24,009 bases of DNA from a virus (taxonomy: Duplodnaviria > Heunggongvirae > Uroviricota > Caudoviricetes): the IMG/VR virus record IMGVR_UViG_2880406838_000007; one strand, 5' to 3'. A program made the position numbers. Below, one piece after another: positions 15,001 through 18,000 of the stretch (the first letter of the stretch is position 1; every line of letters begins with the position of its first letter).

Positions 15001-18000
15001 CAAACAAAACCCGCCCACAAGCGGGTTTTGTTGTGCCACTTATCTCGGATAGACATGGTGAATGCGCTGGTGGAGGAGATAAGGGTGATTTTTGTATGCT
15101 TGCAACATTGATTTCGTAACGTTATTATCCTGCGCCCGGCCCTTTAGCTCAGTGGTGAGAGCGAGCGACTCATAATCGCCAGGTCGCTGGTTCAAATCCA
15201 GCAAGGGCCACCAACCGCCACTAGCCATCAGGAAAGAGCGTCAACCCTTTAAGTTGAGTGTGCGAGGTTCGAGTCCCCGGTGGTGGTCCATTATCGGTAT
15301 TCTGCGTTGTTAGCTCAGCAGGACAGAGCAATTGCCTTCTAAGCAATCGGTCACTGGTTCGACTCCAGTACAACGCGCTACACTTATTTTCCCGGCTCGC
15401 TTTTGCGGGCCTTTTTTGTATCTGCGCCACGCCCGGCGCATACCAACCACAGAGCCTTTCGGGGGGGGGGGGGGGGGGAGCTTACGGAGTGGTCAGTGTG
15501 ACTTTCTCTGTGGGCAGATCGCTCCCGGGCGTTGGCTCACCCACCCAAAGGAACGTCACGATGTTTGGTATTTTTGGTAAAAAAAGCCCGCAGAGCGGCA
15601 ACGGAAATTAAAAAGTTTGAAAAACGCGATCTGGCACAGGTGGTGATTAACGCCGCCTACCTGGTGGCCTATGCAGATGGTGAATGTGAGGCTTCCTAGA
15701 AAGCGAAGATCGAACAGGTACTGCGTAATCAGCCTGCGCTGTACGCGTTTACGTCAGAAATTAATGCGATTAGCGCAACCATTATCGGTCAGCTGGATAC
15801 GAACTTTAAAACTGGTCGTCGTGCGGCGTTACGTGAGATCGAGGATGTGAAACACGATACGCGTGAAGCGGAAGATGTGCTGGATGTGGCGGTGGCCATT
15901 GCGGAGGCAGACGGCGAAATTGAGCCGGAAGAGCGCAAGGTGCTGGAAGAGATTGCCGGTGTTCTGGGTCTTCGTCTGGAGAATTACCTGTGACGGTAAA
16001 ACTGCGCCTGACTGTGGCTGCACTCCTGCTGTTTCTGGTGGTGATGGTGGATTTCACCAGCAGAATCATGTCGGTGCTGGCGGATGGGGTGCTGGTCTGC
16101 GGCATTATGGTATTGCTGTGGCCGGTGATAAAAAGAAACAGCCTGCATAATGCTTGATTTTTTTGTTTGCTGTTTATTAAAAACACTTCTGCATGGTGAA
16201 TCCCCCTGTGCGGTGGGGCAATCAGCAAGAAGGAATATGGGGTAATCGCGGATTCAGGTGCTGATACTGAATTCACCGGGAGGCACCCGGCACCATGCTT
16301 TGCCACAAAAGTGTTATTTCTGTTTTTCTCAAACTATCATCGTTATCCCTTTATTTTCGGCTGCGCATGGCGCGGCCTTTTTTTTACGACCAGCCACTGG
16401 CAGATGGTCATCCTGTGATTTGATTCCGCTTCCGGCTTTTTAACTCTGTTCCTCTACACGGGAGAAATTCGATGTCGATTAAACATTACGATGTTATCAG
16501 GGCGGCGTCGCCGTCAGACCTTGCGGAAAAGCTGACACACAAACTGAAAGAGGGCTGGCAGCCATACGGCGGACCGGTTGCCATTACGCCGTACACACTG
16601 ATGCAGGCGGTGGCTATTGAAGGAGAGCCACAGGTCGGCCCTTCATCTGAGCCGGATTGGTACTACGTCATCGTACTGGCCGGGCAGTCCAATGCCATGG
16701 CTTACGGTGAAGGGCTTCCGCTGCCGGATTCATACGATGCTCCGGATCCGCGCATTAAACAGCTGGCGCGCCGCAGTACAGTTACGCCGGGTGGGGCTGC
16801 CTGCAGATATAACGATATTATTCCGGCCGACCACTGCCTGCATGATGTGCAGGATATGAGTACGCTGAATCATCCGAAGGCAGACCTGAGCAAAGGGCAG
16901 TACGGCTGTGTCGGCCAGGGCTTACATATTGCCAAAAAACTGCTTCCGTATATCCCGAATAACGCGGGGATCCTGCTGGTACCATGCTGTCGTGGTGGTT
17001 CGGCATTCACCCAGGGCGCGGAGGGGACATTCAGTGCGGACGCGGGGGCCAGCCAGGATTCGGCGCGCTGGGGTGTGGGTAAACCGTTATATCAGGACCT
17101 GATTGCGCGCACTAAAGCTGCATTACAGAAGAACCCGAAAAATGTGTTGCTGGCGGTGTGCTGGATGCAGGGAGAGTTTGACATGAGCGCCGCCACCCAC
17201 GCACAGCAACCTGCGCTGTTTACAGCCATGCTGGCACAGTTTCGTGCTGACCTCTCCGTGTTTAACGCGCAGTGCCATGGTGGCAGTGCTGCAGATGTGC
17301 CGTGGATTTGTGGTGACACGACGTATTACTGGAAAAATACCTACGGCACCCAGTACAACACCATTTACGGGGCGTACAAAAACAGGGAGAGTGAGGGCGT
17401 TTATTTTGTGCCCTTCATGACAGACGGTAACGGCGTCAATACCGCCACTAACGCGCCGGCAGAAGATCCGGATATTCCGGCATCAGGATATTACGGTGCG
17501 GCATCGAGAACGAATGGAAACCAGGTATCATCAAACCGCCCGACACATTTCAGTTCATGGGCGCGCAGGAGCATTATTCCGGATCGTCTGGCAACCGCTA
17601 TTCTGAACGCAGCCGGGCGCACCTCAGCCTTCATCAGTGGTAAGGCACCGGAAATCAAACCCTCGCCCGGCGGCAACACGCCATCGGGTCCGTCTGCAGA
17701 TACGTCCGTTCGCACAATCTCCCTGCTGCCGGCAGCCGGAGAGGCTGCTGCGCAGGGCTGGAGCATTAAGGATGGCGGAATTCAGTTGTCAGATGGTGTA
17801 TTTAAGATCACCAAGCAGAGCAATAAAACCTGGTCCCTGACGCATCCGGTGGATGACGCAATTACCCTGCTGACACAGGGCGGCAGACTGACCTGTAAGT
17901 TCCGCCTGTCAGGCGCACTGACCAACAATCAGTTCGGGCTGGGGATTTATCTGTATACGGATGCTCCCGTTCCTGATGGTGTGGCGATGACGGGTACCGG

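Follow-up and report, generated by a model that had tools for sequence, protein, structure and literature searches.

The virus record IMGVR_UViG_2880406838_000007 (IMG/VR; Caudoviricetes), whose whole 24,009-nucleotide stretch was analysed here and is referred to as the window, is a lambdoid prophage that carries a cluster of three transfer RNA (tRNA) genes, the middle one of which is the subject of this work. ARAGORN places these genes on the plus strand at 15138-15213 (anticodon CAU), 15215-15290 (UUU) and 15304-15378 (UCU). The cluster is a tRNA cassette of the lambdoid and Shiga toxin (Stx) phage type, positioned after the antiterminator gene Q, and the region 15100-15420 matches the 'PPompW' prophages of enterohaemorrhagic Escherichia coli (EHEC) at 100% identity and the ileZ-argN-argO region of Stx2 phages such as 2851 at 94.7%. 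The cassette consists of the following features.

15100-15128, plus strand: sigma-70-like promoter from a consensus scan, with TTGCAA, a 17-nt spacer, TATTAT and then a GC-rich discriminator (CCTGCGCCC)
15138-15213, plus strand: ileZ-like gene for tRNA-Ile2, anticodon CAU, intact, CCA encoded (ARAGORN; Rfam tRNA model, 72.5 bits)
15215-15290, plus strand: degenerate second-slot tRNA gene with an argN-homologous body and a Lys(UUU)-type anticodon arm, probably a pseudogene
15304-15378, plus strand: argO-like gene for tRNA-Arg(UCU), a clean cloverleaf that reads AGA/AGG (ARAGORN; Rfam, 68.1 bits)
15394-15418, plus strand: intrinsic-terminator-like hairpin (GGCTCGC/GCGGGCC) followed by a T run, closing the cassette

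The promoter-like element ends 9 nt upstream of the first tRNA gene. In most of 130 related loci a -10 element TATTAT and a -35 element TTGnnn are kept at constant distance despite differing spacer sequence, and 89 of the 130 pass a strict form of the pattern upstream of ileZ; the element is a putative promoter. The same terminator also lies 3' of argO in phage 2851, phage Evi and the PPompW prophages. To judge from this layout of promoter, three tRNA-like genes and terminator, the cassette may be transcribed as an independent unit, and its expression from within the prophage is conceivable. The literature search returned no paper naming ileZ, argN and argO together and did not return the name 'ileZ' itself, nor was there anything on the middle-gene allele in the literature on prophage tRNA-Lys and tRNA-Thr, EHEC rare codons and ECOR temperate phages.

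Anatomy of the middle gene

A single nucleotide separates the CCA of the ileZ-like gene from the middle gene. According to the sequence and the ARAGORN drawing, the acceptor stem (CCGCCAC/GTGGTGG) has 7 bp including G3:U70 (15217/15284), and the anticodon stem (UCAAC/GUUGA) is a perfect 5 bp. The anticodon loop reads C32 C33 U34 U35 U36 A37 A38, with C at position 33 (15247) in place of U33 and the anticodon at 15248-15250. Pairing in the D-arm is limited to G10:C25 and C11:G24, short of the 3-4 bp of a D-stem, and the T-stem (CGAGG/CCCCG) is interrupted by an A51:C63 mismatch (15265/15277). The T-loop that follows G53 (TTCGAGT) has the conserved T54, T55, C56 and A58, the discriminator is U73, and CCA is encoded. 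The initial annotation had already described the 1-nt spacing, C33, the loop CCUUUAA with its nominal UUU anticodon, the weak D-stem and the A-C mismatch in the T-stem, all of which we read in the same way, but it had missed that the window copy lacks one nucleotide (U12, from GCTC) that is present in otherwise identical alleles, and it is this deletion that leaves a D-stem of 2 bp.

The Rfam tRNA model RF00005 gave no match to the middle gene even at E<=10 (gathering threshold 29 bits). The best match from the tRNA clan was to tRNA-Sec at 15.7 bits (E=1.7), so the tRNA score lies below 15.7 bits; a reading as tRNA-Sec (aligned at 15214-15287) or with an 8-9-bp acceptor was rejected at this score (threshold 47) and for the missing variable arm. 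Weak Rfam matches such as 'Plastid-ycf2' and SNORD103 were likewise set aside as antisense or chance matches to the tRNAs of the cluster. The predicted minimum-energy fold of the window copy is not a cloverleaf (-23.3 kcal/mol, versus -18.3 kcal/mol for the cloverleaf); for the canonical Lys allele introduced below and for a clean argN allele the cloverleaf is itself the minimum-energy fold. With regard to amino acid identity, the UUU anticodon, the 7-nt loop and A37 are those of a tRNA-Lys(UUU), whereas the discriminator is U73 rather than A73 and only 46 of 80 aligned positions match K-12 lysT.

The initial annotation had named a canonical tRNA-Arg with a standard anticodon loop at this place as the outcome that would show its fold to be wrong. 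The gene does occupy the slot of argN and is identical to argN of phage 2851 at 65 of 77 positions, yet ARAGORN calls Lys(UUU) and the Rfam tRNA model finds nothing. The anticodon is UUU and not UCG, and the middle gene lacks C35, the main determinant for arginyl-tRNA synthetase. No alternative register of 15215-15290 yields an Arg anticodon. A misfolded canonical argN is thus refuted, and we give it practically no weight.

Ancestry and instability of the second slot

The homologues of the middle gene include annotated tRNA genes from hundreds of phage and E. coli records, so a chance resemblance can be dismissed. The relation of the gene to argN of phage 2851, which has the anticodon UCG and is annotated as reading CGA, extends to the same slot between ileZ and argO and the same flanks, and the ileZ-argN-argO clusters of Stx-converting lambdoid phages (2851, Stx2a phages) resemble the window further in lying after Q, in the promoter-like element upstream of ileZ, in the terminator, in an identical ileZ and in an argO that differs at few positions. 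The Stx-phage argN and the middle gene have G3:U70, A51:C63 and U73 in common. The window differs in the loss of U12, in having no stx genes after the cassette, in an argO without encoded CCA and in the anticodon arm, which is UCAAC-CCUUUAA-GUUGA and not UCAGC-CUUCGAA-GCUGG as in the Stx phages; G30:C40 is changed to A:U, U27:G43 to U:A, and the loop CCUUUAA stands in place of CUUCGAA.

The stem UCAAC/GUUGA is common to the middle gene, to a canonical prophage tRNA-Lys(UUU) and to a large class of alleles with C33 (hereafter the C33 class), and because the whole anticodon arm is shared with these, the UUU loop is not the product of random decay of an argN loop. The initial annotation had proposed a decayed argN or a tRNA with unusual decoding; the irregular, argN-homologous body stands, whereas the anticodon arm belongs to a tRNA-Lys(UUU) lineage. 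Unusual decoding is conceivable for C33 alleles that are otherwise intact but improbable in the window copy.

The canonical Lys allele (L018) has U33 in a loop CUUUUAU, is flawless against the cloverleaf, and occurs in about 20 complete E. coli genomes, where it is annotated as tRNA-Lys; it had no match in the phage collection. It shares with the window copy the slot after ileZ, the anticodon stem, the D-arm sequence and 68 of 77 positions, and differs from it in U33, a perfect T-stem, a perfect acceptor stem and the cloverleaf as minimum-energy fold. When the 77-nt alleles were scored against the cloverleaf, many Arg(UCG) alleles were also flawless, and every C33 allele seen had a further defect, either A51:C63 or U8C. 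As the canonical allele shares the UCAAC/GUUGA stem, the C33 class is most readily understood as descending from a genuine prophage tRNA-Lys via U33C, U38A and G51A.

Of 5,426 complete E. coli genomes, about 770 (roughly 14%) carry a member of the C33 class, and 221 have the exact window allele, which RefSeq left unannotated in 10 of 10 sampled; a version with an intact D-stem, 95-99% identical, is present in 354, is called tRNA-Lys by RefSeq and usually sits in an Ile(CAU)-Lys-Thr(UGU)-Gly(UCC) cassette after Q. The argN of O157 Stx phages falls in the 80-90% identity band (RefSeq tRNA-Arg). In E. coli O111:H- 11128, RefSeq calls a tRNA-Ile and a tRNA-Arg, with no annotation on the intervening 78 nt. 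C33 is present in each of the 31 loci assigned to the C33 class, and no U33 version of a C33 allele occurs in the 5,426 genomes. Of the GTDB representatives, only those of E. coli and Shigella flexneri yielded the Lys-type anticodon arm.

Besides the Stx-phage clusters, the closest relative is the C33 'Lys' of the Ile-Lys-Thr-Gly cassette found in many E. coli prophages, which is identical to the window copy at 75 of 77 positions and has the same anticodon arm, including C33, and the same A51:C63 mismatch. Unlike the window copy it keeps U12 and thus a 4-bp D-stem, has G3:C70, scores 41-45 bits and is annotated (RefSeq tRNA-Lys); it is followed by copies of the host genes thrU and glyT, whereas argO follows in the window. 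Phage Evi likewise combines the window-type anticodon arm with an intact 4-bp D-stem. On the Rfam tRNA scale the intact C33 alleles (41-45 bits) lie near the Stx-phage argN (43 bits), with Evi at 37, a U-G-rich allele (L008) at 33 and the neighbouring tRNAs at 62-74. Across 48 distinct alleles, pairing holds in 96.2% of cloverleaf cells, and both partners have changed in five pairs, so the family was at one time a genuine tRNA; three of these pairs (7:66, 27:43 and 30:40) set the Arg classes apart from the Lys classes. The window allele follows the C33 class through the T-arm and then has a 3' acceptor strand of the Stx-phage type, which is the source of its G3:U70, and recombination inside the 77-nt gene would be the simplest account of it. 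In a known phage tRNA slot, the window feature thus represents an allele class that is common yet undescribed, here in a more decayed state.

The slot itself was surveyed in 133 loci, comprising the loci from an IMG/VR scan for the ileZ 3' end and E. coli loci, which divide as follows.

Ile-Arg(UCG)-Arg(UCU): 62 loci
ileZ and argO with nothing callable by ARAGORN between them: 29 loci
Ile-Lys-Thr-Gly, with Lys of the C33 class: 18 loci
Ile-Lys-Arg(UCU), with Lys of the C33 class (the window type): 5 loci
Remaining loci: oddities, including argN/argO fusions and genes with the anticodon arm deleted or replaced

Within the C33 class, independent secondary lesions were found as U12 loss, U8C (6 of 23 loci), G18A, C1A, G24A, G52A and C7:A66, and the anticodon arm is deleted in three loci. 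Among loci that share the Ile-Lys-Thr-Gly cassette, per-site diversity is 0.035 in the Lys gene, 0.0045 in ileZ and 0.017 in the Thr gene.

Several further forms of the cassette were observed. A common second-slot allele, seen in L023, L029, L033, L039 and about 25 other IMG/VR loci, has GACGACACGATAACAGGGTTGTTG in place of the anticodon arm and an altered T-loop; its acceptor strands are still complementary, and ARAGORN makes no call. In L031, L059 and L105, the 5' half of argN is fused to the 3' half of argO at a shared CCTTCTAAGC loop, so that both Arg tRNAs are lost and only ileZ is callable. The alternative cassette Ile(CAU)-Lys(UUU, C33)-Thr(UGU)-Gly(UCC) was seen in E. coli and Shigella prophages (L004-L007, L133, L134); the Thr and Gly genes of L004 match K-12 thrU and glyT at 100% identity and look like a capture from the host tufB operon that left out tyrU. 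This cassette also provides a second case of an anticodon switch, a thrU-derived prophage tRNA (L009, 481-556; NZ_LR883050.1), in which UGU has become UUU by one substitution and which RefSeq calls tRNA-Lys.

Function of the window copy

We read the middle gene of the window as a tRNA pseudogene that no longer decodes, at a probability of roughly 0.65. This reading rests on the stacked lesions (the U12 deletion, C33, A51:C63, G3:U70 and U73), on the Rfam score and the non-cloverleaf minimum-energy fold, on the fact that RefSeq leaves the allele blank and calls both the intact-D-stem version and the flanking tRNAs, and on the decay seen across the C33 class, the instability of the slot and the degenerate state of the host prophage. 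On this basis we infer a loss of decoding. The second slot would be a fast-evolving position, occupied in relatives by an argN for Arg(UCG), a canonical Lys(UUU), the C33 Lys derivative or wreckage, and the window copy would have arisen from the C33 Lys class by the loss of U12, which collapsed the D-stem, and by acquisition of the Stx-type 3' acceptor strand that gave G3:U70. The gene is presumably still transcribed together with its neighbours, and as its acceptor stem and T-arm are intact, RNase P may still be able to cleave 1 nt beyond the ileZ CCA.

Several observations weigh against a dead gene. The window allele is identical in the 221 genomes, and the same U12 deletion occurs in another cassette (L122, where a Thr gene follows), so the allele has persisted and recombined rather than been lost. 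ARAGORN still calls the gene tRNA-Lys, and the GenBank PPompW records annotate it as such. Substitutions in the stems of C33 alleles lean towards preserved pairing, with seven C-to-T changes (six to G:U and one that repairs A:C) and three disruptive changes; the difference is not significant, in a test made weak by little divergence and the lack of compensatory double changes, but it is not what pure neutrality predicts. The intact C33 allele occurs in the isolated phages Evi, vB_EcoM-606R7, vB_EcoS-689R5 and PhiR47_1, and this, together with the absence of any U33 revertant, means that the class may be tolerated or even useful; U33 is, moreover, not strictly essential to tRNA function.

The G3:U70 pair allows one specific form of function to be considered, since it is the major identity element of alanyl-tRNA synthetase and is transferable to other tRNAs: the RNA could be charged with alanine, which would then be inserted at Lys codons as deliberate or accidental mistranslation. 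A G:U at this position was seen in 3 of 48 alleles and is present in the window allele, Evi and the Stx-phage argN. The D-stem deletion and C33 count against function here too, however, and the gene lacks the secondary Ala identity elements A73 and G2:C71, having U73 and C2:G71 instead. Because one C-to-T change, linked to the Stx-type 3' segment, suffices to produce the pair, drift or recombination is the simpler explanation, and we hold alanine charging to be very improbable.

Compatible with the pseudogene reading, although unlikely in our view, is that the gene is non-decoding and is kept as a tRNA-like processing element. With only 1 nt between the genes, an RNase P cut at the 5' end of the middle gene would free the 3' end of ileZ; an acceptor/T-arm minihelix suffices for RNase P, and some polycistronic tRNA transcripts of E. 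coli are separated by this enzyme. The distribution of damage in the window copy agrees with such a role, in that the D-arm and anticodon loop are damaged and the acceptor stem (7 bp, one G:U) and T-loop TTCGAGT have been spared, as does the fact that wrecked alleles in relatives retain a segment of 67-82 nt with complementary ends rather than showing a clean deletion. Several argN-type alleles nevertheless have an A6:A67 mismatch in the acceptor stem, and the three argN/argO fusions have non-complementary ends, so the constraint is not absolute.

A further reading concerns defence by tRNA cleavage. AriB, the nuclease of the PARIS system, has Lys(UUU), Thr(UGU) and Asn(GUU) tRNAs as its main targets and cuts E. 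coli tRNA-Lys(UUU) at U36AAUC-A41, before A41; U39A, A41C and U16C block or impair cleavage (PMC12409363), and phage T5 escapes AriB with a tRNA-Lys variant of this kind (PMC12409363; PMC11464382). The OLD protein of P2 destroys Thr(UGU) during P2-lambda interference (PMC12445682), and in other lambdoid phages the tRNA genes located after Q are Asn(GUU) and Thr(UGU) (PMC3636060). The middle gene could by analogy be a functional, non-canonical tRNA-Lys(UUU) that replaces the host tRNA-Lys cut by AriB or by PrrC/RloC-type nucleases, being a poor substrate through C33, G39, U40 and U41, and C16. By sequence comparison, the prophage Lys class reads U36 A A G U U41 and has C16, as opposed to U39, C40, A41 and U16 in the host tRNA-Lys; C33 is invariant within the class; and the lambdoid Asn(GUU) and Thr(UGU) genes after Q, taken with the E. 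coli cassette of C33 Lys and Thr(UGU), correspond to the three main targets of AriB, with Thr(UGU) also being the target of OLD.

Other observations do not fit. G39, U40, U41 and C16 are already present in the canonical U33 relative L018 and so leave C33 unaccounted for. Thr and Gly in the alternative cassette are 100% identical to host thrU and glyT and hence no resistant variants. Many C33-class alleles are altered at universally conserved positions, e.g. U8C and G18A, and the window copy, with its D-stem deletion and lack of a workable D-stem, its C33 and a score below any tRNA threshold, is not the otherwise functional tRNA that nuclease evasion would call for. The phage T5 tRNA-Lys(UUU) is comparable in being phage-encoded, in its UUU anticodon and in differing from host tRNA-Lys at bases 39-41 and 16, where AriB matters, but it is unrelated in sequence and is a working tRNA with experimental rescue, whereas the window copy is structurally damaged. 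We therefore consider a functional, evasive tRNA at this locus to be quite unlikely. For the C33 class as a whole, which viable lambdoid phages also carry, it is unlikely but slightly less so that it represents a tRNA or decoy hardened against anticodon nucleases (AriB and OLD of P2/P4 elements, or PrrC-type), with C33 and G39-U41 as the evasive changes. In that case lambdoid phages would carry the class after Q alongside Thr(UGU) or Asn(GUU) in order to survive tRNA-cutting defences, and the window copy would be a recently disabled relic of a counter-defence gene.

Flanking tRNAs, prophage setting and implications

The two flanking genes are in a different state. Both fold into clean cloverleaves, as the initial annotation had stated, and the ARAGORN calls and Rfam scores given above bear this out. 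The ileZ allele is identical to that of the window in 114 of 130 sampled loci, and RefSeq labels a gene identical to it tRNA-Ile; TilS would convert C34 of this tRNA to lysidine, after which it would read AUA. RefSeq also has a tRNA-Arg in O111:H- 11128 at the position matching the argO of the window. The 3' end of the argO-like gene (15376-15380) reads ...ACAACGC-G-CTA, i.e. GCTA and not GCCA, which had been overlooked; CCA is thus unencoded and would need adding after trimming. In the allele comparison, argO without encoded CCA is a minority form among the sampled alleles, five of which share the sequence of the window.

Codon counts bear out the expected abundance of AUA and AGA/AGG in the nearby AT-rich effector genes. 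In the open reading frame (ORF) at 20006-20881, ATA accounts for 9 of 21 Ile codons and AGA plus AGG for 11 of 15 Arg codons, and in nleG (21106-22026; 35% GC) the corresponding counts are 11 of 25 and 7 of 13, compared with 3 of 46 and 3 of 16 in a chromosomal MFS gene; expressed as shares, AUA makes up 43-44% of Ile codons and AGA/AGG 54-73% of Arg codons in the effector genes. The intact Ile2(CAU) and Arg(UCU) tRNAs would thus plausibly raise AUA and AGA/AGG decoding for AT-rich cargo such as nleG-type effectors. The proposal that the cluster supplies AUA, AGA and AGG decoding accordingly holds for the two flanking tRNAs but not for argN, whose UCG anticodon is annotated as reading CGA and which at no time provided for AGA/AGG. 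Extra tRNA is not needed for Lys codons; K-12 has several lys tRNA genes, four of them within one 1.2-kb stretch.

The prophage around the cassette is degenerate, with a frameshift in cro, an internal stop in a TerB-family gene and a nanS-p gene cut by IS1203; a tail-fibre fragment remains, and the lysis and morphogenesis (head) genes are gone. Two neighbouring features were defined as follows.

14247-14942, plus strand: late-gene antiterminator Q (Pfam PF06323, E=1e-90; RefSeq annotation of the matching locus), directly upstream of the cassette
16472-19865 region: nanS-p-like gene (DUF1737, SASA esterase and DUF6645 domains), truncated by IS1203 of the IS3 family

IS1203 carries an ALIL frameshift pseudoknot (18574-18690), and the tail-fibre C-terminal fragment lies directly after the truncated nanS-p region. 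The ORF at 20006-20881 (291 amino acids, 39% GC, very high rare-codon use) adjoins nleG, had no match in Pfam, NCBIfam or PDB, and may be an uncharacterised effector. ORFs at 15040-15228 (minus strand), 15221-15430 (minus) and 15258-15611 (plus) were rejected as spurious, as they cross the tRNA genes and are unannotated in RefSeq.

Additionally, a run of 18 G lies at 15461-15478, about 85 nt upstream of the TerB-family pseudogene (start 15562). Most related loci have 3-7 G here; longer runs of 11, 12 and 16 G occur in Evi, L079 and O111:H- 11128, respectively, and in PPompW_132418 an ISEc20 element (IS110 family) is inserted within it; the run could be a hypervariable or phase-variable tract, an insertion-sequence target or partly a sequencing artefact. 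Small RNAs above the Rfam thresholds were DicF (4537-4588, minus strand), sok (11705-11854, plus) with hokD alongside, and STnc100 (16162-16334, plus), the last just upstream of the nanS-p-like gene, as it also is in Stx phages.

For annotation, the finding exposes a conflict, as GenBank labels the same 76 nt tRNA-Lys in its PPompW records whereas RefSeq has no feature there; on the evidence, 15215-15290 is better marked as a tRNA pseudogene than counted as a Lys tRNA. That prophage tRNAs support the expression of horizontally acquired cargo is a long-standing idea, and the intact ileZ- and argO-like genes, with their own promoter-like element and beside effectors in a prophage remnant, fit it. 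Further, the second slot offers a compact natural case of tRNA remodelling, in which one tRNA body has given rise to Arg(UCG), Lys(UUU), C33 Lys and pseudogenes, with recombination within 77 nt. If the C33 class does resist nucleases, it would link the tRNA cassettes of temperate phages to the defences borne by P2 and P4 elements.

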